Positions 5-12,781 of a stretch of 64,000 nucleotides of DNA are shown here, in pieces; position 1 is the stretch's first letter; the number at the start of each line of letters is the position of its first letter. A program made the translations under genes and the position numbers. This stretch comes from Vicinamibacterales bacterium. Lineage in GTDB: Bacteria; Acidobacteriota; Vicinamibacteria; Vicinamibacterales; UBA8438. The stretch lies in assembly GCA_965218825.1 (NCBI GenBank), contig OZ244656.1, positions 3,805,038 to 3,869,037 of the forward strand. Reading direction: 5' to 3'. The notes beneath the pieces were generated by a model. The model was not told the DNA's origin and made no database searches. It worked only from the letters and a program-made list of their open reading frames with translations.

Positions 5-1069
5 GTGCCGTTCGAGAAACGGGTGCATGTCGGCAGCTGGATGCCCCCAAGCTATGACCCAGAGCTGCGTTTGATCTATCAGGGCACCTCGGTGACCTCG
101 CCGGCGCCGAAGTTCCTGCTCGGGGGTGTCAACAACACGCATCTGTACCACAACTCGACGCTGGCGCTCGATGTCGACACCGGTGAGATCAAGTGGTACT
201 ACCAGCACCTGAACGACCACTGGGATCTCGACCACCCGTTTGAGCGTTTGCTTGTTGACACTGCCGTGGCCCCGAATCCCGGTGCCGTGAGCTGGATCAA
301 TCCACGGATACAACCAGGTGAGGTCCGGAAGGTCGTGACCGGCGTGCCTGGCAAGACCGGTGTGGTCTATACGCTGGACCGAGAAACTGGCGAGTTCTTG
401 TGGGCGACGCCGACCGTGCCGCAGAACGTCATCAGCGACATCGACGGCGCGACGGGTGTCGTGACCGAGAACGCCGAGGTGGTCTTCACCTCGTATGGTC
501 AGGAAGTCTTGGCGTGTCCGACGTGGGCTGGAGGGAAGGACTGGGAGGCCGGCGCCTACAGCCCGCTGACCAACACGATGTACATGCCGTTACGCAGAAC
601 CTGCGCGCGCATGTTGGCCACGGGCACCCCAGAAGGGGAGCGGGAGTTGGCACTGACAGCCGGCGGGCAACGGCCGCTTGCCATCTACTCGCTCGCCGCC
701 CGGCACCAGATCGCACCCGGCCATGACCTGCTCGGGACGATCTACGCCGTATCCGCCGAGACGGGAGAGACGACGTGGCTCTACGAACAACGGGCCGCGA
801 CAATATCGCTCGCGGCCACGGGCGGTGGACTGGTGTTTGGTGGCGATGCAAACGGTCGGTTCAGGGCGTTTGACCAGGACACGGGCGAGATTCTGTGGGA
901 GATCAACCTCGGTTCGCCGGTTGTCGGCTATCCGGTGAGCTTCGCTGTTGATGGACGACAGTATGTGGCCGTGAGCACCGGCGGTGGCGCGGGTATCAAC
1001 CTGCGCATCACCCCCGAGCTGCGTCCAAGCTCCGGAAGCAACCTCTTCGTGTTCGCACTGCCGGAGTAG
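5..1069 (+). CDS. PQQ-dependent dehydrogenase (quinoprotein beta-propeller family), C-terminal part; 5' end outside window
   Basis: The ORF is open to the window edge. Its last propeller blades (GGLVFGGDANGRFRAFDQDTGEILWE...VSFAVDGRQYVAV) parallel those of the full-length PQQ enzyme at 54964-56688 (GGLVFAGGTNDRYFRAFDAETGDVLWQ...TSYAIDGVQYVAV). An HWDLD active-site-like motif lies at nt 218-232. Confidence 0.8.
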   Translation: MPFEKRVHVGSWMPPSYDPELRLIYQGTSVTSPAPKFLLGGVNNTHLYHNSTLALDVDTGEIKWYYQHLNDHWDLDHPFERLLVDTAVAPNPGAVSWINPRIQPGEVRKVVTGVPGKTGVVYTLDRETGEFLWATPTVPQNVISDIDGATGVVTENAEVVFTSYGQEVLACPTWAGGKDWEAGAYSPLTNTMYMPLRRTCARMLATGTPEGERELALTAGGQRPLAIYSLAARHQIAPGHDLLGTIYAVSAETGETTWLYEQRAATISLAATGGGLVFGGDANGRFRAFDQDTGEILWEINLGSPVVGYPVSFAVDGRQYVAVSTGGGAGINLRITPELRPSSGSNLFVFALPE

Positions 1070-1186
1070 TCGGACCTCTCCCAGGGTTACATCCGCCCGC
1101 CCGCCGCTCACGCCAGTCGTGCGCCTGGCCATCAGGTGGGGGGCAAGGGCCAGGTATAATCAGGTATAAGAACGAAACAACCCTCC

Positions 1187-2539
1187 ATGCAGAACCCCTC
1201 AAGAGCTTTGAAACCACCGGTCAAGGTCTGTCTCTTTTTGTTGTTGTGCTCTTTGGTCTACGGCGCGGCGGACGCGCAGCCCGAAGGGTCTGGCGCCGAG
1301 GCGGTCCGGATCTTCGTAGACTGCGGTCCGTGCGACGAAACCTACTTGCGCCGGGAGATCACGTTCGTCAACTATGTTCGGGATCGGGCTGACGCGCAGG
1401 TGCACGTGCTTGTCACTCGGGAGGTAAGCGGCGGCGGCGGTCGGGTCTGGACCGTCGATTTCTTCGGGCGCGATGAGTTTGAGGGAATGGACGACCAACT
1501 CGTATTCTTCACCGCCCGAGACGACACGGACGACGGCGAGCGCCGCGCCCTCGCGCAGACGCTCCGACTAGGGCTGGTCCGGTACGTCGCCCAGACCCCC
1601 CTCGGTCGGCAGCTGGACGTTTCCCAACGGTCAAGTGGTCCGCTGGGTGGCCCCCTAGCAGGCCAGCCCACCGGTGGGACGCTTCCATCGTTCAACGCTC
1701 AACCCGAGGACGATCGGTGGAATTTCTGGGTCTTCCGGGCGCGGATGAGACCGCTCGTCTTCATTGATGCCGAAGAGCGGGAGAAACAGAAACGCTTCGG
1801 CGGCTCGTTTTCGGCGTTTCGAACTACTGAGATGTGGAGGATGCGAATCGGCGTCGGCGCGACCTACCGGTCGCAGACGTTCGAGCTATCCGACTCGACG
1901 GCGACCAACATTCAGCGGAACAACAGTTTCGACGCTCGCTTTGTGAGGAGCATGGGCGAGCACATGGGTCTCGGGTTCGGCGGCTCGGCCATCAGCTCAA
2001 CGTTCAGGAATCAGGATCTGACCTACCGGGTGGCACCGGCCGTCGAGTACAACTTCTTCCCCTACTCCGAGTCCACGCGCCGGCAGTTCACGGTGGCCTA
2101 CTCGGCCGGCTACAACTCGTTCCGATACGCGGAGACTACGGTCTTCGGCCGGCTCGAAGAAGGGCGAGCCAATCACTCCGTTCAGACGTCTTTCGTGATG
2201 AACCAGCCCTGGGGCGCCAGCGACCTCACGATGGAGTTCTCGCAGTTCCTCGACGAGCCGGACCAGAACCGATTCGTCCTGTTCGAAGAAATGGATCTTC
2301 GGCTATTTCGCGGCCTGTCTCTGAACCTCGAGGCGAACAGCTCGTTCATTGGAGACCAGATCTACCTGCCGCTCGAAGACGCGACCGATGTGGAGGTGCT
2401 GCTGGGACGGCAGCAGCTCGCGACCGACTTCGAGTGGCGTCTTTTTGTTGGGCTAAGCTACTCGTTCGGGTCGATCTACAACAACATCGTCAACTCGAGG
2501 TTCGCAGGATCGTCCGGGGGTTTCACTCGCGCGTTCTAG
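1187..2539 (+). CDS. Hypothetical exported protein, possibly an outer-membrane beta-barrel
   Basis: N-terminal signal peptide (KVCLFLLLCSLVYGAADAQ). The C-terminal half is rich in alternating aromatic/polar beta-strand-like segments and ends in an aromatic residue (..GFTRAF), as in OMPs. I recognise no family. Confidence 0.55.
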   Translation: MQNPSRALKPPVKVCLFLLLCSLVYGAADAQPEGSGAEAVRIFVDCGPCDETYLRREITFVNYVRDRADAQVHVLVTREVSGGGGRVWTVDFFGRDEFEGMDDQLVFFTARDDTDDGERRALAQTLRLGLVRYVAQTPLGRQLDVSQRSSGPLGGPLAGQPTGGTLPSFNAQPEDDRWNFWVFRARMRPLVFIDAEEREKQKRFGGSFSAFRTTEMWRMRIGVGATYRSQTFELSDSTATNIQRNNSFDARFVRSMGEHMGLGFGGSAISSTFRNQDLTYRVAPAVEYNFFPYSESTRRQFTVAYSAGYNSFRYAETTVFGRLEEGRANHSVQTSFVMNQPWGASDLTMEFSQFLDEPDQNRFVLFEEMDLRLFRGLSLNLEANSSFIGDQIYLPLEDATDVEVLLGRQQLATDFEWRLFVGLSYSFGSIYNNIVNSRFAGSSGGFTRAF

Positions 2540-2560
2540 GCGCCGGCAGGATCTGACAGC

Positions 2561-3595
2561 ATGCGCGTCCGACAGACTCTGCAACACGGATACGTCTCAT
2601 TCCAGGACGACAACACGATCTCGCGTTTCACGTTGGATCCGACCACCGCCCAGCTCGAGTGGCAAGAGGATGTCGCCGTCGAGGGCGGCCCGGCGCCGCT
2701 GGCCCTTTCTCCTGGTAAAGAGGTTCTCTATGTCGGCCGGAGAGAGAGCCAGGAGATCGCCAGCTACCGGATTGACCCCCGCACGGGTCGCATTTCTCTG
2801 ATTGGGGCGGCGCCCCTGCAGGGGGAGCCGGTGTATGTGGCGACCGACCGAACCGGCCGATTCGTGCTGTCGGCCTACTACTATCAGAGCACGGCAGCCG
2901 TCCACACGGTCGGTCCCGATGGCGTTGTCGCGATTCCACCGGTCGAGTGGCGCTACACGGGGGGTGGGGCGCACGCGATCCTGACGGATCGCTCCAATCG
3001 ATTCGCGTTCGTGCCCCATATCGCCAACCGAGGTCCGAACGCGATCTTCCAGTTTCGGTTTGACGAGAGCACCGGGTCCCTCACGCCCAGCGATCCCCCC
3101 CGGTACGACCCACCGGACTACCTTGGCCCACGGGCGCTGTGTTTCCACCCGACGCTGGACGTCGTCTATTTTTCGGACGAGCAGGGCAACAGCGTGTCGG
3201 CGTACGCAATGGACGCGTCGGCTGGAACGCTGTCACCCCTGCAGACGATTTCGACGTTGCCTGACGGCTTCACGGGTCAGAATACGTGCTCTCAGATTCA
3301 GATCGCGCCATCGGGGCGATTCCTGTATGCGCCGAATCGGGGGCACGACAGCGTAGCGAGTTTCACGATCGATCAGTCCAGTGGTCGTTTGACCGCGACA
3401 GGCCGGGTTTCCACCGAGCCCATTCCTAGGGTTTTCAGTCTGGATCCGACCGGTCGCCTTCTCGTGGTGGCTGGCCAAGGGTCCGGGCGACTCGCGACCT
3501 ACCGGGCGCACGCCGATACCGGTGTACTGACACCCCTCGAGACCTACGAGGGCGGCAACAAGCCCATGTGGGTGCTGATCACCGCGTTTTCGTAG
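2561..3595 (+). CDS. Lactonase-type 7-bladed beta-propeller protein (6-phosphogluconolactonase/YbhE-like)
   Basis: The length is about 344 aa. Repeated blade motifs are typical of the family (..FVPHIANRGPNAIFQFRFD.., ..FHPTLDVVYFSDEQGNSVSAY.., ..GRFLYAPNRGHDSVASFTID.., ..DPTGRLLVVAGQGSGRLATY..). Confidence 0.7.
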   Translation: MRVRQTLQHGYVSFQDDNTISRFTLDPTTAQLEWQEDVAVEGGPAPLALSPGKEVLYVGRRESQEIASYRIDPRTGRISLIGAAPLQGEPVYVATDRTGRFVLSAYYYQSTAAVHTVGPDGVVAIPPVEWRYTGGGAHAILTDRSNRFAFVPHIANRGPNAIFQFRFDESTGSLTPSDPPRYDPPDYLGPRALCFHPTLDVVYFSDEQGNSVSAYAMDASAGTLSPLQTISTLPDGFTGQNTCSQIQIAPSGRFLYAPNRGHDSVASFTIDQSSGRLTATGRVSTEPIPRVFSLDPTGRLLVVAGQGSGRLATYRAHADTGVLTPLETYEGGNKPMWVLITAFS

Positions 3596-3625: not shown

Positions 3626-6427
3626 TTGGCACTGTCCTATGATAGACCCGTGGCGCCTATCCGATTCGCCGCGGTCGGTTCGATTGCACTCCTTCTGAAC
3701 ACGGTCTATCTCGTCGCATTCCCAACAGCCTCACTCGTCTACTTCACCAACGTTCTGCTGCACCCGGTTCTTGGCCTGGCAGTGGTCATTGCCATTGCGA
3801 TTGAGGCACGGCACCATGATTGGACGATCGGCCCGGTCCTGAGAGCCGGCATCGCGACCAGCGCCATCGCAGTGCTGGCGGGCCTCGCCATCGCGGTTGT
3901 TGGTGCCACGACCAACACGCGCCTCCTGGTGTATGCGCACGTTGTGACGGCGGTCGCGGGCGTGCTTCTCATCAGCGTGCACCTCTGGCGAGTTTCGCGC
4001 GAATGGCCGACGGTCAACGCGATACGTTTCTCGATCGTGACGCTGGCCATCATGCTAGCCGCGGCGCCTTGGGTGCGCTCGTGGAACGAGTCGGCCTGGC
4101 GCGACGCGTACAGCGTGGCGAACCCGACCGAGACGCCGCTGGACATGACCCAGGAGGGCGGTGGCGTCGAGAGTCCCTTCTTTCCGTCCTCGGCCAACAC
4201 GACGAGCGGCGATATCATTCCGGCGAACTTCTTTTTGACAAGCGAGATGTGCGCTCGGTGTCATCGAGACATTTACGATCAGTGGAACTCGTCCGTCCAC
4301 CACTTCTCGTCCTTCAACAACCAGTGGTATCGCAAGTCGATCGAGTACATGCAGGACGTGGTTGGGACCCAACCGTCCAAATGGTGTGCCGGATGTCACG
4401 ATCACGCCGTCTTCTTCAACGGTCGATTCGATCGACCGATGCGTGAGCAGATGGACACGCCCGAAGCTCAGGCCGGGCTCGGGTGTACGTCGTGCCACGC
4501 GGTGGTTCATGTGGGCGGCACGATGGGGCAGGGCGACTTCGTCATCGAGTACCCGCCGCTTCACGACCTTGCGACAAGCGACAACCCGATACTGGCGTGG
4601 ACGCACGATCGGCTGGCCTATCTGGCCCCTGAACCCCATCGTCGCACGTTCCTAAAGCCCTTTCACGAAGAGCGGAGTGAGGAATTCTGCTCGACATGTC
4701 ACAAGGTGCACCTCGACGAGCCCGTCAACCACTACCGGTGGATCCGGGGGTTCAACGAATACGACAACTGGCAGGCCTCGGGCGTGTCAGGCCAGGGCGC
4801 CCGTTCGTTCTATTACCCGCCGGAGCCACAGACGTGCAGGGACTGCCACATGCCCCTCGTTCCGTCGGATGATCCATCGGCGACGGACGGAGCCGTACGG
4901 TCACACCGTTTTGCCACGGCCAACACGGCCCTGCCTTTCGTCAACGGCGACGCCGACCAGCTTCAGGCCGTACAGGACTTCCTCACTGCCCGCCAGATCT
5001 CGGTCGATGTGTTTGGCGTTGCGAGGGTCGAGGAGGTGTCGCCGCTAGATGGGCAGGCCGCGGCGCGTACCGCTCCGGCATTGTCGAGTACGTTCGCCGT
5101 TGGGGAGGAATCACCAGGGTTCGGCGGAGGGGCCGCCACGACGACGTTCGCGCCTGCCGAGGTCGTCGCGCCGCTCGACGTCATTCCGGTCGCTGTGCGC
5201 CGCGGCGAGTCGGTGCGTGTCGAAGTAGTGCTTCGGACGCGCAACGTCGGACACTTCTTTCCTGGGGGAACCGTCGACGCGTTCGACGTGTGGGTCGAGT
5301 TTGAAGCGGTCGACGAGAACGGTCGCGTCCTTCTGCACAGCGGCGTGGTTGAGGACGACGGCCGCGGTCCCGTGGACCCCGCCGCGCACTTTTACGGCAG
5401 CTTCCAGCTGGACGGGCACGGCAACCAGATCAATAAACGCAACGCGTGGATGACGCGTTCGGTGGCGTATGTCCGGCTCGTCCCGCCGGGTGCAGCTGAC
5501 ACCGTGCACTATCGATTGCAAGTGCCGGAAGATGTTGGTGACCGTATCGTGCTTCGTGCCAAAGTGAACTACAGGAAGTTCGCCTGGTGGTATACACAGT
5601 GGGCCTACGCCGGCGTGCGTGACCCGGCGGAGTCGACTCCGGCTGTTGACGCCGGCTACGACGACGGCCCATGGCTTTTCACCGGCGATACCTCCACGGT
5701 CTCCGGTCCGATGAAGGAGATCCCAAACCTGCCAATTACGATCATGGCGGAGGCCGAGGCATCCCTCGTGGTCGTCGACGCGGACGCGCCGCTGCCGTCC
5801 GGCCCGTTGCCGGAGGGGGCGTCGTCGGATGTCCGTGGACGCTGGAACGACTATGGAATCGGTCTCCTGTTACAGGGTGATTTGCGAGGAGCCGCGAGCG
5901 CGTTCCAGCGGGTGATGGAGATCGATCCGGCCTATCCGGATGGGCCGGTGAATCTGGCTCGAGTACTTTTGCGAGAGGGCGACGTCCAACGAGCCCTTCC
6001 GCACCTCGAGTCGGCGCTCGAGCTCGCGCCGGGTCTGGCCCGTGCCCATGTCTTCCTTGGGATGGGCCTCAGGACGCTTGGACGGTATGACGAAGCCTTC
6101 AGCCACCTCGAAGCCGCACGCGCTCAGTACCCACGCGATCGCGTCGTGCTTGGCGAGCTGGGTCGCATCCACTTCCTCGAGCGACGGTTCGACGAGGCGA
6201 TCGCGACGTTCACCGATGTCTTGCGAATCGATCCTGAGGATCTGCAGGCCCACTACAACCTGATGCTGGCGTATCGTGGCGCAGGCGACCTCGAGCAGGC
6301 AGCCCGCGAGCAAGCGCTGTACGAGCGGTTCAAGGCCGACGAATCCGCGCAGGCGATTGCCGGACCGTTCTTGCTCCGGTCGCCCGAGGTCAACAACGAG
6401 CGACAGTCGGTTCACGAACATCGCTAG
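3626..6427 (+). CDS. Membrane-anchored multiheme c-type cytochrome fused to a C-terminal TPR domain
   Basis: There are about 5 N-terminal hydrophobic helices (residues ~14-150). Five CxxCH heme-binding motifs are present (CARCH nt 4250-4264, CAGCH, CTSCH, CSTCH, CRDCH nt 4835-4849). C-terminal TPR-like repeats occur (..AASAFQRVMEIDPAYPDG.., ..ALPHLESALELAPGLARAH.., ..AIATFTDVLRIDPEDLQAHYNL..). The start is uncertain (TTG at 3626). Confidence 0.8.
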   Translation: MALSYDRPVAPIRFAAVGSIALLLNTVYLVAFPTASLVYFTNVLLHPVLGLAVVIAIAIEARHHDWTIGPVLRAGIATSAIAVLAGLAIAVVGATTNTRLLVYAHVVTAVAGVLLISVHLWRVSREWPTVNAIRFSIVTLAIMLAAAPWVRSWNESAWRDAYSVANPTETPLDMTQEGGGVESPFFPSSANTTSGDIIPANFFLTSEMCARCHRDIYDQWNSSVHHFSSFNNQWYRKSIEYMQDVVGTQPSKWCAGCHDHAVFFNGRFDRPMREQMDTPEAQAGLGCTSCHAVVHVGGTMGQGDFVIEYPPLHDLATSDNPILAWTHDRLAYLAPEPHRRTFLKPFHEERSEEFCSTCHKVHLDEPVNHYRWIRGFNEYDNWQASGVSGQGARSFYYPPEPQTCRDCHMPLVPSDDPSATDGAVRSHRFATANTALPFVNGDADQLQAVQDFLTARQISVDVFGVARVEEVSPLDGQAAARTAPALSSTFAVGEESPGFGGGAATTTFAPAEVVAPLDVIPVAVRRGESVRVEVVLRTRNVGHFFPGGTVDAFDVWVEFEAVDENGRVLLHSGVVEDDGRGPVDPAAHFYGSFQLDGHGNQINKRNAWMTRSVAYVRLVPPGAADTVHYRLQVPEDVGDRIVLRAKVNYRKFAWWYTQWAYAGVRDPAESTPAVDAGYDDGPWLFTGDTSTVSGPMKEIPNLPITIMAEAEASLVVVDADAPLPSGPLPEGASSDVRGRWNDYGIGLLLQGDLRGAASAFQRVMEIDPAYPDGPVNLARVLLREGDVQRALPHLESALELAPGLARAHVFLGMGLRTLGRYDEAFSHLEAARAQYPRDRVVLGELGRIHFLERRFDEAIATFTDVLRIDPEDLQAHYNLMLAYRGAGDLEQAAREQALYERFKADESAQAIAGPFLLRSPEVNNERQSVHEHR

Positions 6428-6493
6428 TGGCGGCTTTTCCGCTCGCGCACGCTTACCGAAAAGCGCCAGATCCGTGCTGTACACTAGTGAAAA

Positions 6494-8263
6494 ATGACAT
6501 TTCAGTACGGACTGGCCACACCGAGCTTGGCGATCGTGTTGTTCTGGTCCGGCACGTTGGTCGGCTGCGGTGGGGCACCGTCTGAACCTACTACCGAGAT
6601 ACCGATTAAGCCCACGAAGACTCAGGACGGACACTCCTCGGGACCGACCCTGGCGTCAGACGTCGAGTTCGTCGATGTGACCGACGAGGTTGGGATTCGG
6701 TTCACGCACAACAGCGGAGCCACGGGCGACAGGCTCTTGCCCGAAACGCTTGGAGCCGGCGGGTTGGTCCTCGATGTCGATGCCGATGGATGGCAGGACG
6801 TCCTTCTGGTGAACTCGAAGGCGTGGCCAGGTGAGTCGGGCTCGCCGTCACATCCAGCGCTTTACCGCAACGCCGGTGACGGGACGTTTGTCAACATCTC
6901 CGGTGGGTCGGGGCTCGACGTCGAGCTTTACGGGATCGGCGGCGCGGTCGCAGACTACGACAACGACGGATATGTCGACATCTATCTGACGGCGCTGGGG
7001 CCAAACAGGTTGTTTCGGGGAAGAGGCGACGGGACGTTCTCGGATGTGACGGTATCCGCTGGAGTCGCGGGCCGTCGGTTTTCAACGAGCGCCGTGTGGT
7101 TCGACTACGATAACGATGGCCACCTCGACCTGTTCGTGGCGAACTACGTTGAATGGACGATCGACGGGGACTTGTTCTGCTCGCTTGACGGCGAGAACAA
7201 ATCGTACTGCACGCCAGAGGCCTACACCGGCCAAAGCCCGAACCTCTATCGCAATGCTGGTGACGGCACCTTTGAGGATGTGACAGCGGTCGCCGGCCTC
7301 GACGATCCGTCCTCGAAAGCGCTCGGCGTCGCCATGCTCGACTACGATGCTGACGGCTGGATGGATCTATTCGTGGCCAACGACACGGAGCCCGACCGCC
7401 TGTATCACAACCAGGGTGACGGGACGTTCACCGACAACGGCGTCGTGGCCGGCGTTGCTTTTAGCGAAGGCGGGGTTGCGCGTGCCGGTATGGGCGTCGA
7501 CGCGGCGGACTACGACGGGTCTGGACGCCCAAGCCTCGTGGTGGGTAACTTTTCGAACGAGATGATCGCGCTCTATCACAACGAGGGGAACGGCCTGTTC
7601 ATCGACGAAGCCCCGCGATCGGCCATTGGAAGCTCGTCGCTCCTGACCCTGGCGTTTAGCTGTTTCTTCTTCGACTACGACCTTGACGGACGTCCTGACA
7701 TCTTTGCGGCAAACGGTCACGTTGCCGACGATATCGAGCACGTGCAATCGAGCGTGACCTATGCGCAGCCGGCGCACTTGTTCCGGAACATGGGACCTGG
7801 TCGGTTCGAGGAGGTGACGGCTGTGGCGGGTACGGCGCTGGCGCGACCCACGGTAGCACGCGGTGCCGCCTATGGTGACTTCGATCTCGACGGCGACCCG
7901 GACCTTCTTGTCACGGCCAACAACGGCCCGGCCCGTGTCTTGCGCAACGACGGCGGTCACGCTAACAACGCACTGCGCGTAGTCACCGTGGGCACCGCAT
8001 CAAATCGTGATGGAATTGGCGCGCGAGTTGAAGTCATGATGAATGGCGAGTCGCGCTGGCAGATCGTCAAGACCGGATCAAGCTACGCCTCGCAAAGCGA
8101 GCTGCCGGTGACGTTCGGCGTCGGTACCGCTACCGCGGTGGAATCGCTGAGCGTCACCTGGCCGAGTGGAACGGTCGATCGGGTCGCCGGTGTCAACGCC
8201 AATCAACAGGTGACGGTGAAAGAGGGGGAGGGCGTGGTCGAGACGCGACCCTTTGAGCGCTAG
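6494..8263 (+). CDS. CRTAC1-family lipoprotein (FG-GAP/VCBS repeats + ASPIC/UnbV domain)
   Basis: Lipoprotein-type signal (..LFWSGTLVGCGG). Repeated Ca-binding FG-GAP motifs (DVDADGWQDVLLVN, DYDNDGYVDIYL, DYDNDGHLDLFVANY, DYDADGWMDLFVAND, DYDLDGRPDIFAANG, DFDLDGDPDLLV). C-terminal UnbV/ASPIC signature (SNRDGIGARVEV...GSSYASQSELPVTFGVG). Confidence 0.85.
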   Translation: MTFQYGLATPSLAIVLFWSGTLVGCGGAPSEPTTEIPIKPTKTQDGHSSGPTLASDVEFVDVTDEVGIRFTHNSGATGDRLLPETLGAGGLVLDVDADGWQDVLLVNSKAWPGESGSPSHPALYRNAGDGTFVNISGGSGLDVELYGIGGAVADYDNDGYVDIYLTALGPNRLFRGRGDGTFSDVTVSAGVAGRRFSTSAVWFDYDNDGHLDLFVANYVEWTIDGDLFCSLDGENKSYCTPEAYTGQSPNLYRNAGDGTFEDVTAVAGLDDPSSKALGVAMLDYDADGWMDLFVANDTEPDRLYHNQGDGTFTDNGVVAGVAFSEGGVARAGMGVDAADYDGSGRPSLVVGNFSNEMIALYHNEGNGLFIDEAPRSAIGSSSLLTLAFSCFFFDYDLDGRPDIFAANGHVADDIEHVQSSVTYAQPAHLFRNMGPGRFEEVTAVAGTALARPTVARGAAYGDFDLDGDPDLLVTANNGPARVLRNDGGHANNALRVVTVGTASNRDGIGARVEVMMNGESRWQIVKTGSSYASQSELPVTFGVGTATAVESLSVTWPSGTVDRVAGVNANQQVTVKEGEGVVETRPFER

Positions 8264-11200
8264 TGGCAGCAACAACACGACGACAGCTGGTCGGACTCTG
8301 GGGCGTGCTGGTCGGGTGTGCCACCGCAACGTGTGGTGGCGGCCCTGAGCTACCGCTCGCCAACGAGGCAACCTACCGCGCGAACAATCAAGGCGTCGCG
8401 CTGCTCGAGCAGTTCGACTATCAGCCGGCGGCCGAGGCGTTTCGCGAGGCGCTCGATCTGGACGAGTCACACGCGGCTGCCCGGGTCAACCTCGCGATAG
8501 CCCTGTTCCTCGAGCAGGATCTCGAAGGCGCGAATCGAGAAGCAACCGCAGCGGCTGCGGATTTGCCGTCAGCGCTCGAGCCGCCGTACCTGCGCGGACT
8601 GGTCGCGCGGGCGCAGAATCGCCTCGACGACGCCATGGTCGCCTTCGGCACAGTTCTCGAGGCCGATCCAATTGACGTCGGCACAAACATCAACTTGGGT
8701 CAGATCTACCTGGAGATGCGCGACTATCCGGCCGCGATCGAGCGACTCCGGATCGCATACGAACACGAGCCCTTCAACGTCACCGCTGTCTACAACCTGG
8801 GCCTCGCCCTAGCCCGCAGTGGCGAGACCGCGGCGGGGCAGGCGCTGCTGGAACAGGCGCAGGCGTTGAGGTCGACGGAGTACGCCGTCACGTACAACAC
8901 GGGATACCTGCAACAGGGTCGCTACGCCGAGGCGATCGCCTCCACGGGTGCCGAGGCGGAGCTGGTTGATACCGCCGTACCCACGAGCGTATTCACGTCG
9001 CTCGAGGTTGGATCGTGGTCGCCATCTTCCACCCCGACGTCGCCATTTGGTCGTCGGTTTGCCGCCGACGATCTGACCGACGACGGCGTTCGTGAACTTG
9101 TGGCTGGGTTGGGCGGCGGAGTGGCGCCATTCGACTTCGACATGGATGGGGATCTTGATCTGTTCGTCGCGATGCCGGACGGAGAACGCTTGATGCGTAA
9201 CGACGGCGCAGGCCGCTGGGCGGAGGTCACGGCGTCAGCCGGACTGTCGGTTGCCCCCGATGACGGCGTTCCCATCGGCGCCATCGTGGCGGACTACAAC
9301 AACGACGAAGCACTCGATCTCTTCGTGCTCCGCTATGGCGGAAGCAGCCTCTATCAGAGCGATGGCGCTGGCAGCTTTACAGACGTGACGTCGTCGGCCG
9401 GCCTCTCGGACATCACACAGGCGCATGTGCCGGGCGCTGCGGCCTTTGCCGATCTCGATCATGACGGCGACGCCGACCTCATCATCGCCGGTCTCGCTGA
9501 TGTAGAGTCGTCGCTCGTATCGTTGGCAGAGGGCGCGTCGCTGCTGTTTCCCGAGGAGTTCGCACCGGCGCCGTTGCGCGTGCTCCGCAATAACCAGGAC
9601 GGGTCGTTCACCGATGTCACGGATGCGTCAGAAGTCGCGTTTTCAGGTCATGCCGTGGCGGTGGTGCCGACCGATTTCGACAACCGCCGAGATGTCGACC
9701 TGCTCGTGATCGATCGCGGCGGACCGCCCCGACTGTTCATGAACCTGCGGGACTCGACGTTTCGGGACGTTGCGTCTGAGGTGGGACTGGCGACTGCTGG
9801 CAACGCGATCGCGACGGTGTCGGCGGGAGACGTGAACAAAGACGACTTTCCTGACTTCGTCCTCGGGCGTGCCTCCGACGCCCTTGTCGCGCTGAGCGAT
9901 GGGCGGGGGCGATTTACGCTTGTTCCCGCTCCGGACGGAGCAGGCGACGCCAGCGCTCTCCGATTGCTCGACTACGACAACGACGGCTTGCTCGACTTGC
10001 TCGCGTGGGTGACCGACGGACCCCGGCTGTTCCGAAATCTTGGCCAGGACTGGAGCGATGTGTCCGGCACGGCGTTCGCCAGCTTCACCACCGAAGCGCC
10101 GGCGCCGGGCGCGGGTGGCCTTGGCGTTGCCGACATCGATCGTGACGGTGACAGCGATATCGTCGCGGTTGGCCCGGAGCGCGTCGTGATCGCTGAGAAC
10201 AGCGGAGATTCGCGGAACGCGTCAATTCGGATCGGGCTCCGCGGACTGGTTAGCAATCGCGCCGGGATTGGGGCGAAGGTGCAGCTGCGCGCCGGCAGCT
10301 TGAGTTCGCGTTTGGAGGCGTCGTCGGCGACGCCCGCGGCGGCACCGGCCGATCTGGTCTTCGGCATTGGGCGGCGACCCGGCGCGGACGTGGCCCGGGT
10401 GTTGTGGCCTTCCGGCATCTTGCAGGCCGAAGTGCCGGAACAGGACTACCTCTCGTCCGAGTTGGATGTCCAAGAGCTTGACCGCGAGCCCTCGTCGTGT
10501 CCGTTTCTCTTCACGTGGAACGGCAACCGGTTCGAGTTCGTCACCGATTTCCTCGGAGGCGGCGAGATGGGGCTGTGGCATGGTCCGGATCGCTACAACA
10601 CGCCGGATCCGGTGGAGTACGTCCGGATTCGGGATGACCAGTTGAAGCCGAAAGACGGGTTCCTCGAGCTCAGGGTCACGAGCGAACTTGAGGAGGCGGT
10701 CTTCTTCGACCATTTGGAGCTGGTGGTCCTGGAGCACCCTCGCGACGTTCAGATCTACCCGAACGAAGGCCTGACCGATCCGCCCAAACCGCACCAGCTG
10801 CACGCCGTGCGTGACCCTCGCGTCCCGGATCGCGTGCGAGACGAGAGCGGAAGCGACGTCACCGATCTGGTTGCGCAGATCGATGGGCGCTCCCCCGAGG
10901 GCTTTGCGCTGGCCCCATTTCGGGGCTATGCCGAAATCCACAGTCTGATTCTCGATCTGGGGGCGTCCAGCGACTCTGCCGTCCTCCTGCTTACCGGTTG
11001 GACCTCGTACGCGTTCTCGAGCGACAACCTTGCCGCGCTGCAAGCTGGGCTTACGCCCATCGTACCGGCGCTGGAAATCAAGGACACGAGCGGGACCTGG
11101 CGTCCGGCTGGAGTCGATATGGGATTCCCGGTGGGCCGGCCGCAGACCATCGCGGTCGACCTGACCGATCACCTTCAAGCCGGTGAGCACGAGCTCCGGA

Positions 11201-11754
11201 TCGTGACCAACATGCGGATCTACTGGGATCAGATCCTGGTTGGTCGTCGCGCCTCGATCGATGGGGTCCGCGAGCACCGAATCGATCTGTCCAGCGCCGA
11301 TCTACGCGAACGTGGTTTCTCTGCGGAGACGCGCACCGAGCCCACGACATACGACTACGATCGTGTCAGCGCGAAATCACCGTGGAAAACCATGGCGGGA
11401 AGTTACACGCGGGAGGGCGACGTGATCGAGCTGCTCGCGGCTGGCGATGACCGTTTCGTCATCACGCGCGACGGCGACGAAATCGTCCTGCGGTACGATG
11501 CCTCGGCGCTCGATCCGATCCACGAGAATCAGGCTCGGACCTACCTGCTTCGCGCCGACGGTTTCAGCAAGGAGATGGACATCAACTCGGCCACTCCGGA
11601 TTCGGTCGAACCGCTCCCGTTCCACGCGATGTCTCGATACCCGTACAGCGCGTCCGAGCGGTATCCCAGCACATCGGCGCACCGCCGGTATCGCGAAACC
11701 TACAACACGCGCCCGGTCGTTGCTTCGGTGCCGCGTATCGAGGCGGCGAGGTAA
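8263..11754 (+). CDS. Large lipoprotein: N-terminal TPR + FG-GAP/VCBS repeats + ASPIC/UnbV + ~440-aa uncharacterised C-terminal region
   Basis: The GTG start overlaps the upstream stop by 1 nt (TAGTG). Lipoprotein-like signal (LVGCATATCGG). TPR repeats span residues ~35-200. FG-GAP motifs are present (DFDMDGDLDLFVA, DYNNDEALDLFV, DLDHDGDADLII, DYDNDGLLDLLAW, DIDRDGDSDIVA). UnbV-like block (SNRAGIGAKVQLRAG...VLWPSGILQ). Confidence 0.8.
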   Translation: MAATTRRQLVGLWGVLVGCATATCGGGPELPLANEATYRANNQGVALLEQFDYQPAAEAFREALDLDESHAAARVNLAIALFLEQDLEGANREATAAAADLPSALEPPYLRGLVARAQNRLDDAMVAFGTVLEADPIDVGTNINLGQIYLEMRDYPAAIERLRIAYEHEPFNVTAVYNLGLALARSGETAAGQALLEQAQALRSTEYAVTYNTGYLQQGRYAEAIASTGAEAELVDTAVPTSVFTSLEVGSWSPSSTPTSPFGRRFAADDLTDDGVRELVAGLGGGVAPFDFDMDGDLDLFVAMPDGERLMRNDGAGRWAEVTASAGLSVAPDDGVPIGAIVADYNNDEALDLFVLRYGGSSLYQSDGAGSFTDVTSSAGLSDITQAHVPGAAAFADLDHDGDADLIIAGLADVESSLVSLAEGASLLFPEEFAPAPLRVLRNNQDGSFTDVTDASEVAFSGHAVAVVPTDFDNRRDVDLLVIDRGGPPRLFMNLRDSTFRDVASEVGLATAGNAIATVSAGDVNKDDFPDFVLGRASDALVALSDGRGRFTLVPAPDGAGDASALRLLDYDNDGLLDLLAWVTDGPRLFRNLGQDWSDVSGTAFASFTTEAPAPGAGGLGVADIDRDGDSDIVAVGPERVVIAENSGDSRNASIRIGLRGLVSNRAGIGAKVQLRAGSLSSRLEASSATPAAAPADLVFGIGRRPGADVARVLWPSGILQAEVPEQDYLSSELDVQELDREPSSCPFLFTWNGNRFEFVTDFLGGGEMGLWHGPDRYNTPDPVEYVRIRDDQLKPKDGFLELRVTSELEEAVFFDHLELVVLEHPRDVQIYPNEGLTDPPKPHQLHAVRDPRVPDRVRDESGSDVTDLVAQIDGRSPEGFALAPFRGYAEIHSLILDLGASSDSAVLLLTGWTSYAFSSDNLAALQAGLTPIVPALEIKDTSGTWRPAGVDMGFPVGRPQTIAVDLTDHLQAGEHELRIVTNMRIYWDQILVGRRASIDGVREHRIDLSSADLRERGFSAETRTEPTTYDYDRVSAKSPWKTMAGSYTREGDVIELLAAGDDRFVITRDGDEIVLRYDASALDPIHENQARTYLLRADGFSKEMDINSATPDSVEPLPFHAMSRYPYSASERYPSTSAHRRYRETYNTRPVVASVPRIEAAR

Positions 11755-11761
11755 CGGGCAC

Positions 11762-12781
11762 ATGGAACACGTTCGCTACTCGGCCGCCGCGTGCCAGACC
11801 GATCTTGCCAACCCGACCGACCGGTCACACATGCGCAAGAACACCGACCGGATACTCAGCATGGTGGACTCAGCCGTGGAGGGGAGTGCACCGTTTCTTC
11901 CAGTACGACTCGTGGTGTTTCCGGAGTTCGCACACGCCGCGCCGGTGTTTCCGACGGTCGAGGAGTTGCGGCGGAAGCTGACTGTGCCGATTCCCAACGA
12001 ACACACCGATCGGCTTACGGCGAAGGCCCGCGAGCATGGCATCTACATCCAGAGTGGGACGATGCTCGAGGAAGACTCGAAATACCCAGCCGTGGTCTTC
12101 AACACGACATGTCTGATCGGGCCGGGCGGCATTCTCACCAAGTACCGAAAGGTCAACCCGTGGATTCCGTATGAGGTGCACGCGAGCCCCCACGACTTGC
12201 CTGGCTACGACGAGCCGCTCTTTCCCGTGGCCGATACACCTATCGGCCGCATCGGTTGTGCGATCTGTTATGACTGGCTATTTCCCGAAGCGCTGCGTCA
12301 GCTAGCTGCGAACGGCGCTGAGGTCCTGGTCCGGGTGTCGGCCTACATGGATCCGTGGGGCGCGACCGAGCCGATGTCGTGGTGGACGATCGTCAATCGG
12401 TCCCGAGCGTTGGAGAACCTCTCTTACGTCGTTGCGGCGAACCAGGGCGCGAGTCTTCGGCACTACCCCCCGTACTCGTGGCCGGGCGGTTCCCAGGTCG
12501 TCGACTTCGACGGGCGGCTGCTGGCCGAAGCATCACCGGGTCCAGGGGAGCGGATCGTGATTGCGCCGATCGACATTTCGGCCCTCCGTCACGAACGGCA
12601 GGCGCGGACGGGCCATCACATGCTTGCGCATCTTCGCACTGAGGCCTACGAGGTGTATCGGCGCCCTGGCTATCCACCATCCGGCGGAGATGCGACGGCC
12701 CTGTCGTACCCGGGCAACCGTCAGCGGATCGAGGCCGCCAAGCAGGCCTTTGTCTCGCCGTCGACCCGAGAACCGGCCTAG
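11762..12781 (+). CDS. Carbon-nitrogen hydrolase (nitrilase/aliphatic amidase superfamily)
   Basis: The E-K-C catalytic triad context is present: VVFPEF (Glu), YRKVNPW (Lys), GCAICYDWLFPE (Cys). I take the in-frame ATG at 11762 (MEHVRYSAAAC..). The ORF-track start at 11447 would overlap the preceding gene by about 300 nt. Confidence 0.85.
   Translation: MEHVRYSAAACQTDLANPTDRSHMRKNTDRILSMVDSAVEGSAPFLPVRLVVFPEFAHAAPVFPTVEELRRKLTVPIPNEHTDRLTAKAREHGIYIQSGTMLEEDSKYPAVVFNTTCLIGPGGILTKYRKVNPWIPYEVHASPHDLPGYDEPLFPVADTPIGRIGCAICYDWLFPEALRQLAANGAEVLVRVSAYMDPWGATEPMSWWTIVNRSRALENLSYVVAANQGASLRHYPPYSWPGGSQVVDFDGRLLAEASPGPGERIVIAPIDISALRHERQARTGHHMLAHLRTEAYEVYRRPGYPPSGGDATALSYPGNRQRIEAAKQAFVSPSTREPA

Follow-up and report, generated by a model that had tools for sequence, protein, structure and literature searches.

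A membrane-bound pentaheme cytochrome with a tetratricopeptide repeat array, genetically coupled across phyla to a CRTAC1-like propeller lipoprotein

Introduction

The PHC family of pentaheme cytochromes includes c552, ExtKL, Gsu2801 and the sPHC and lPHC proteins of cable bacteria (PMC11976967), and PtdA also belongs to it (bioRxiv 10.1101/2023.11.21.568154). One of its members, MccSep, the ExtKL selenoprotein GSU2937-2936 of Geobacter sulfurreducens (PDB 9wt8), is a polysulfide reductase in which heme 2 is His/Cys-ligated (C239) and a Sec/Cys residue, U325, on an immunoglobulin-like (Ig-like) loop completes the active site on the distal side of the heme (bioRxiv 10.1101/2025.11.18.688581). 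Here we describe a gene at positions 3626-6427 of the forward strand of a stretch of 64,000 nucleotides (the window) from the genome of a Vicinamibacterales bacterium of the phylum Acidobacteriota (GenBank assembly GCA_965218825.1, contig OZ244656.1, positions 3,805,038 to 3,869,037). Its product is a cytochrome with a predicted PHC-type unit. c552 and the PHCs described so far are soluble or signal-peptide proteins of ~400-450 amino acids; compared with them, the protein has in addition an N-terminal domain of five helices with a His pair, an insert of ~40 residues in the Ig-like beta-sandwich, five tetratricopeptide repeats (TPRs), a tail ending in H-x-H and a CRTAC1-like partner.

Few groups of soil bacteria are as abundant as the Acidobacteriota, and little is known of the redox chemistry of their envelope. 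In other bacterial systems (CbcL, ImcH and the CymA/NapC/NrfH group), a periplasmic multiheme cytochrome c is wired to an inner-membrane module through which electrons are exchanged with the quinone pool. To our knowledge, no function has been established for a CRTAC1 protein in any organism. Genes of the CRTAC1 family have been found between hydrazine-synthase-like (HZS-like) heme c and propeller genes in some Planctomycetota, in Syntrophobacter and in Paludibaculum (PMC12758564). The results presented below show that the cytochrome of the window is a single membrane polypeptide whose periplasmic part comprises five c-hemes, an Ig-like domain and a TPR array, and that it is genetically coupled across phyla to one CRTAC1-like propeller lipoprotein. 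We propose, with a probability of about one half, that it works as a quinone-pool-linked b/c cytochrome that acts together with the propeller on a periplasmic substrate.

Results

Architecture and integrity of the gene

A prior interpretation made from the bare DNA (the sequence-only reading) had proposed a single polypeptide in which about five transmembrane (TM) helices are followed by a five-heme cytochrome c domain and a TPR array. This order of domains proved correct, and the features of the gene, all on the forward strand, are as follows.

3626..6427, +, whole gene: five-TM domain, pentaheme domain, Ig-like beta-sandwich, TPR array and C-terminal tail
3656..4108, +, membrane domain of five helices, predicted N-in/C-out, without a known family (structure model, hydropathy)
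3761..3763, +, His46 in TM2, putative axial ligand of a b-type heme on the periplasmic side, paired with His105 (conservation)
3812..3817, +, His63 and His64 at the cytoplasmic end of TM2, with His119 a possible second heme site (variable in the family)
3938..3940, +, His105 in TM4, partner of His46 (conservation)
3980..3982, +, His119 in TM4, 14 residues past His105 (conservation)
4208..4945, +, alpha-helical pentaheme domain, the putative "PHC cap" (motifs, conservation, Pfam, 5ZE8 matches)
4250-4264, 4385-4399, 4484-4498, 4688-4702 and 4835-4849, +, the five CxxCH sites (residues 209, 254, 287, 355 and 404)
4988..5785, +, Ig-like beta-sandwich, the putative "stem", with a disordered insert at residues ~470-509 (model strands, Foldseek)
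5249..5272, +, invariant loop G-H543-F-F-P-G-G-T of the beta-sandwich (invariant in two alignments)
5825..6343, +, five TPR repeats, ten helices, residues 734-906 (Pfam, structure model, PDB TPR matches)
6392..6424, +, C-terminal tail N-N-E-R-Q-S-V-H-E-H-R with its H-x-H end (invariant in close orthologues)

The reading frame is open for 933 codons from the TTG at 3626 and has no in-frame TGA. The start codon is uncertain by eight residues, the alternative being the GTG at 3650, which matches the 925 residues of an identical public protein (P0002, 100%). The cytochrome family is present in a single copy in this genome, which also carries the genes for cytochrome c maturation.

Such an architecture could conceivably be produced by a frameshift that joins two genes, or by CxxCH motifs arising by chance. 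We give this explanation practically no chance of being right. Alignments to homologues with 50-85% identity run unbroken from residue ~13 to residue 932, so that the frame is not two genes or the product of a frameshift, and thousands of full-length homologues of 920-990 amino acids are collinear with it. An origin as two genes, which the sequence-only reading had itself raised along with a possible lack of conservation of the motifs, was therefore rejected. The motifs are in fact invariant at all five sites, both in 70 orthologues and in 72 diverse relatives, and they are not a chance pattern, because they hold all ten Cys residues of the protein.

The pentaheme domain and the Ig-like stem

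The five motifs lie exactly where they had been placed, between nucleotides 4250 and 4849. Four His residues outside the motifs (H225, H338, H427 and H543) are 100% conserved in the 72 diverse members, H588 is 81% conserved, and the tail residues H930 and H932 are ~65% conserved. PHC proteins pack their five hemes in a Y shape, one heme being special and not bis-His-ligated; the presence of only four invariant non-motif His for five hemes is compatible with this feature, though not decisive. In 27 of the 72 diverse members heme site 1 is C-G-x-x-G-C-H (CX4CH) and not CXXCH; plain counting of CxxCH motifs labels these members of the family tetraheme.

The fold of this part of the protein was approached with a profile and with structure models. 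When the profile of the 70 orthologues (residues 160-735) was compared to solved proteins, the best match was cytochrome c552 of Thermochromatium tepidum (5ZE8; E = 1.3e-4), and MccSep/ExtKL came second (E = 0.007). A first, full-length structure model was too poor in the heme domain (pLDDT 56) to be of use there. A second model, of residues 160-735 and based on 70 sequences, reached a pLDDT of 72.9 and a pTM of 0.76. Searched with Foldseek against the PDB, the second model again retrieved 5ZE8 (E = 1.9e-11, probability 1.00, TM-score 0.58 when normalised to the target, 574 columns); the next match had E = 2e-4, and the remaining matches were generic Ig-like sandwiches. Since 5ZE8 is both the sole strong fold match and the best profile match, the heme domain and the middle region are, as modelled, the cap-and-stem unit of the PHC family.

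The middle region had been described as ~300 residues with no recognisable motif. At the level of sequence this holds: Pfam has nothing for residues 430-735, and the beta-sandwich finds nothing in Pfam, NCBIfam or, by profile, the PDB. The region is nonetheless not featureless, as both structure models contain beta strands at residues ~458-717, and these form the beta-sandwich (residues ~455-720) that would be the stem of the PHC unit. By analogy with the Sec loop of MccSep, its invariant G-H543 loop is a candidate for a heme-facing ligand or an active-site loop.

Other heme families fit less well. The sequence-only reading had suggested a search for NrfB/NapC-like and c554-like families. Pfam Cytochrome_C554 (PF13435) does match, with 33.1-38 bits against a threshold of 20.8, but it is a broad, motif-level family and the match (residues 209-291) covers just hemes 1-3. 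The NapC/NirT/NrfH/CymA type was rejected, as the protein has five TM helices and not one and PF03264 (Cytochrom_NNT) stays below its cut-off (20.5 bits, cut-off 24.1), as does TIGR03153 (8.4 bits, cut-off 134). The NrfB type was rejected because its model is below threshold.

The TPR array and the C-terminal tail

At least four TPR-like repeats had been noted at the C-terminus, and five were found. Pfam TPR matches reach E-values down to 1e-20, with TPR_19, TPR_2, TPR_12 and others above threshold over residues 740-900, and the helices of the repeats are modelled with pLDDT 75-95. An H-x-H sequence within the last 25 residues occurs in 31 of the 72 diverse members.

The membrane domain

The TM helices span residues 11-31, 37-63, 70-92, 96-126 and 130-161, according to the structure model (pLDDT ~75-82) and hydropathy. 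Seven Arg residues are found at the predicted cytoplasmic ends (R7, R13, R62, R73, R122, R125 and R134) and one at the periplasmic ends (R99). This distribution fits a predicted N-in/C-out topology and with it the periplasmic location of hemes and TPRs that had been deduced earlier; the hemes are thereby placed where c-type heme attachment occurs.

The presence of His residues in the TM helices had also been pointed out. H46, H105 and H119 all lie within helices, but only the first two are conserved throughout the family. In the 72 diverse members the conservation is 97% for H46 and 99% for H105, compared to 60% for H64 and 57% for H119. H46 and H105 are invariant in two further family alignments and occur together in 210 of 215 sequences; H119 is found in 147 of the same 215. 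The TM domains of different subfamilies are only 15-25% identical, and what is fixed across them is Tyr28/Leu29, His46, Gly50 (four residues past His46), Gly86 and His105. In the structure model His46 and His105 are equally deep, the periplasmic helix end being nine residues away in TM2 as in TM4. In membrane cytochromes b, a bis-His heme-b site near the outer face has this same geometry. Two conserved His at equal depth on separate TM helices, the signature of such a heme-b site, are thus present in TM2 and TM4, and we infer that the H46/H105 pair ligates a b-type heme near the outer face of the membrane.

A second, cytoplasmic-side heme could be held in this protein by H63/64 and H119. This pair is complete in 62 of the 215 sequences, and a strict second b-heme on the cytoplasmic side was rejected for the family as a whole for want of family-wide support. 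The Planctomycetota-type subfamily keeps four TM His, 18 residues apart in TM2 and 14 in TM4, which is the spacing seen in di-heme cytochromes b.

Neither as a single sequence nor as a 47-member profile did the TM domain yield a significant match in Pfam, NCBIfam or the PDB. PF01292, the HydC/FdnI di-heme domain, matched two of 47 TM domains at E ~0.1 (~0.12), NarI alignments had E = 2-8, and no cytochrome b of the PDB matched below E = 2. We count the PF01292 and NarI alignments as no evidence, and a membrane domain of the CbcL type (PF01292) is unsupported.

The CRTAC1-type partner

The gene that follows the cytochrome encodes the partner:

6494..8263, +, CRTAC1-type lipoprotein with FG-GAP propeller and UnbV_ASPIC domain, lipobox-like LVGC at residues 22-25 (Pfam, PDB 9etn)

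Its Pfam scores are 176 bits for FG-GAP_3 and 66 bits for UnbV_ASPIC, and it matches the solved CRTAC1 structure (PDB 9etn) with E = 6e-22. The sequence-only reading had supposed that the cytochrome serves the FG-GAP lipoprotein encoded downstream, and gene order supports this strongly. Relatives of the cytochrome are encoded on at least 589 candidate stretches (one genome per GTDB species), and synteny was counted in 80 genome loci. In 74 of the 80 a CRTAC1-type gene with 55-70% identity lies directly 3' of the cytochrome gene. The same arrangement is found in a distant subfamily, in which the cytochrome is 31-36% identical and a CRTAC1 gene with 40-53% identity comes next in 61 of 80 metagenome loci; the exceptions there are mostly contigs that end too soon. 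CRTAC1 pairing is also seen at five of six 5-TM paralogues of 915-1141 amino acids, and at three of six short variants (750-775 amino acids) that keep the heme, Ig-like and TPR parts and are without the five helices. Among the 14 UnbV_ASPIC matches of this genome, none of the other 13 is more than 41% identical to the partner, from which it follows that one CRTAC1 orthologous group travels with the cytochrome.

Conservation in the partner was examined in 104 sequences. The conserved positions are Ca-type DxDxDG blades, H72, E84, N296-D297-T298 and N407-G408-H409; the propeller has no conserved Cys, and its only invariant His are H72 and H409.

Distribution and naming

The architecture had been called unusual, an assessment that needs to be divided. 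No description of the 5-TM/pentaheme/TPR fusion was found in Pfam, NCBIfam, the PDB or the literature. It is not rare, but belongs to a huge family present in several phyla. A word-indexed search (8,000 scored candidates) gave at least 7,986 clusters at 90% identity, and among its best 120 matches query coverage was at least 83%, mostly 97-100%, with 64-100% identity. Exhaustive searching of 50%-identity representatives identified 3,037 clusters at E <= 1e-3, of which 772 remain at a cut-off of E <= 1e-30. The best 80 stretches are nearly all from Acidobacteriota (Vicinamibacteria, Blastocatellia, Terriglobia and Thermoanaerobaculia). Evenly sampled genomes of that phylum have a match at E <= 1e-20 in about a third of cases (138/401), and ~54 of these have full-length orthologues. 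Named members outside the phylum come from candidate division KSB1, Bacteroidota and Planctomycetota, and include WP_013565916 of the cultured Isosphaera pallida ATCC 43644, which was first annotated as "RapC".

Public names for the family vary between "tetratricopeptide repeat protein", "multiheme c-type cytochrome", "Flp pilus assembly protein TadD", "PilF" and "response regulator aspartate phosphatase RapC". The names TadD, PilF and RapC stem from the TPR part alone and are misleading.

Neighbouring genes

Two further genes follow the partner on the same strand:

8263..11754, +, second, longer propeller protein with TPR, FG-GAP and UnbV_ASPIC domains and a ~440-residue extension, an accessory member of the cassette (Pfam)
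11762..12781, +, nitrilase-superfamily (CN_hydrolase) gene, with a likely start at ATG 11762 and not at 11447 (Pfam)

Full-length relatives of the longer propeller protein occur in a subset of the loci; they are frequent and not constant. Its N-terminus has a twin-arginine-like TRRQLV and a lipobox-like LVGC, and several loci of the distant subfamily also encode its C-terminal extension (residues ~640-1150), there upstream of the cytochrome or on the opposite strand. The CN_hydrolase frame, if read from 11447, overlaps the preceding gene by ~300 nucleotides and has an N-terminus rich in Arg, Ser and Thr; ATG 11762 sits just past the stop at 11754 and is thus the likely true start. CN_hydrolase relatives with 56-80% identity lie near the cytochrome in 11/80 and 7/80 loci.

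No terminator- or promoter-like sites beyond chance were seen between the genes of the cassette. The 66-nucleotide spacer between the cytochrome and CRTAC1 genes (window 6421-6490) can form a long imperfect hairpin (-26.2 kcal/mol, z = -2.0, a modest significance), which has no T-run after it and hence is not a canonical terminator.

Upstream, at window 5-3595 on the same strand, are a PQQ-dehydrogenase fragment at the window edge, a 450-residue exported protein without a family and a seven-bladed lactonase-type propeller. These genes are at least 30 nucleotides away from the cytochrome gene. They were rejected as members of the unit, being syntenic in 0/80 loci, and represent local neighbourhood.

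Elsewhere in the genome, CRTAC1-like gene pairs at G000:C1:1612-6375 and G000:C1:4443350-4448114 gave the same tblastn identities (41.1% and 41.6%), which suggests a large, near-exact duplicated segment in this single-contig genome of 5.4 Mb. Only five other open reading frames have three or more CxxCH motifs (935333-938179, 985734-988064, 2695123-2695686, 3533482-3534771 and 3548163-3550493). Two of them encode 777 amino acids with 7-8 motifs, and one of these lies ~8-14 kb from CRTAC1 paralogues at 3.558-3.562 Mb.

Discussion

A working model and its weak points

In the quinone-linked model that we propose, a b-heme on His46 and His105 would link the quinone pool of the membrane to the five c-hemes, and electrons would pass between the two. 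The lipoprotein partner would be kept next to the heme domain by the TPR arm, with the H-x-H tail perhaps contributing, and the assembled complex would use a periplasmic substrate either as electron donor or as electron acceptor. Catalysis could take place at a heme that faces the invariant G-H543-F-F-P loop or on the propeller. The partner is without residues of the type that bind cofactors, which makes the cytochrome a good candidate for the site of catalysis; the reaction would in that case occur at the His543-loop heme, as in MccSep, and the propeller would bind or present the substrate. We suggest more tentatively, as a possibility that we hold with some doubt, that the cytochrome and the CRTAC1-like lipoprotein constitute a new periplasmic oxidoreductase, wired to quinone through a new heme-b membrane module and representing a new class of respiratory or detoxifying enzyme.

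Several observations weigh against the quinone-linked model. The heme b, the quinone site and the contact between the two proteins are all deduced from patterns in the sequence. For the TM domain, no quinol-oxidising or heme-b family gave a significant match, and most orthologues in Acidobacteriota are without the cytoplasmic-side His pair. The model of the heme domain contains no hemes and is of only moderate confidence (pLDDT 72.9). Variants without the five helices also pair with CRTAC1, so the core function can do without the membrane module. Finally, the absence of a conserved Cys and the presence of just two invariant His leave the partner without an evident redox cofactor site.

Alternative explanations

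Some of these observations could also be explained if the five helices did no more than tether a PHC-type cytochrome to the membrane, the His pair being structural or binding another metal and electrons arriving from soluble periplasmic carriers instead of quinol. The short relatives of 750-775 residues are what one would predict in that case, as they keep the pentaheme, Ig-like and TPR parts behind one N-terminal hydrophobic segment and adjoin CRTAC1 at three of six loci, and the lack of detectable homology of the TM domain to heme-b or quinol-binding families points in the same direction. A mere anchor, however, needs one helix and not five, and it would not account for two His (97% and 99%) and two Gly remaining fixed although the TM subfamilies are 15-25% identical. 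Two His at the same depth, together with four His at di-heme-like intervals in a remote subfamily, also resemble a heme-b site, and we therefore consider a pure anchor unlikely. A different use of the helices would be a transmembrane shuttle, in which no quinol site is involved and two b-hemes relay electrons across the membrane, from a donor in the cytoplasm to the hemes in the periplasm, in the manner of MsrQ/YedZ or cytochrome b561. The four TM His of this protein and of the Planctomycetota-type subfamily do form two pairs (H46/H105 and H63-64/H119). Against this stands the fact that the cytoplasmic-side pair is complete in only 62 of 215 sequences and missing from most Acidobacteriota orthologues; in addition, the neighbourhoods examined hold no conserved gene for a cytoplasmic partner, and the domain has no similarity to the Ferric_reduct or b561 families. 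A shuttle is in our estimation a long shot.

The protein could also have a role outside respiration, either as a redox sensor or as an assembly or maturation factor for envelope proteins, with a chaperone-like TPR domain as in CcmI or NrfG and hemes that sense. The TPR domains of CcmI/CycH and NrfG bind apoproteins, a weak, sub-threshold match to Pfam TPR_CcmH_CycH (28 bits against a cut-off of 42) can be seen in the array, and the partner has no obvious redox sites. Such a role seems quite improbable to us, given that the protein has neither an output nor a signalling domain, that its neighbourhood lacks a conserved regulator gene, and that its five hemes are strictly conserved within a fold common to an enzyme (MccSep) and an electron carrier (c552).

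Possible significance

Taken singly, the components of the cytochrome are of known kinds: its core has the PHC fold, its arm consists of TPR repeats, and CbcL offers a precedent for the b/c fusion principle. It is their combination that deserves attention, as a recently recognised pentaheme fold is joined here to two additions not described for it, a five-helix module with a heme-b-like His pair and a TPR arm. The only PHC-fold member with a known reaction is the sulfur-reducing MccSep. If the cytochrome and its neighbour form an enzyme complex, the complex would extend the short list of inner-membrane multiheme modules linked to quinol (CymA, NrfH, CbcL and ImcH), and CRTAC1-type propellers would become approachable by experiment in cultured bacteria such as Isosphaera pallida. 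Should the oxidoreductase reading be true, the CRTAC1 family, the human cartilage protein included, would obtain its first biochemical function, and the enzyme class would be a common one in soil Acidobacteriota and Planctomycetota.

Comparison with known systems

The closest solved relative, the low-potential T. tepidum c552 (5ZE8), is arranged like the core of the present protein, with its five c-hemes in an N-terminal alpha-helical part and an Ig-like beta-sandwich behind it, at a sequence identity of ~14%. MccSep shares the cap-and-stem fold family, and in the present protein the Ig-like domain bears a G-H-x-F-P loop that is 100% conserved. Unlike MccSep, the protein has no Cys outside the heme motifs and no Sec. 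A sulfur enzyme of the MccSep type was rejected on these grounds and on the score of NF040886 (MccSep/ExtKL), which at 16.1 bits (6.7 bits for the core alone) is far below the cut-off of 250 bits; a search with NF040886 in this genome and in control genomes found no ExtKL locus.

In its proposed principle the protein would resemble CbcL, ImcH and CymA/NapC/NrfH, to which it has no sequence relationship. The layout of the membrane part differs, with five N-terminal helices as opposed to one in the NapC type or a C-terminal b-domain in CbcL.

For the pairing of cytochrome and CRTAC1, or for a function of UnbV/ASPIC domains, no description was found in the literature other than the neighbourhood of HZS-like and CRTAC1 genes (PMC12758564). 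The cytochromes of that study are HZS alpha- and beta-gamma-like and not PHC-TPR proteins, and no membrane cytochrome-TPR fusion is described there. It is nevertheless a similar case, in which a bacterial CRTAC1 gene is conserved within a cluster for periplasmic c-type cytochromes, and it thus provides another link between bacterial CRTAC1 proteins and c-type cytochromes of the periplasm.

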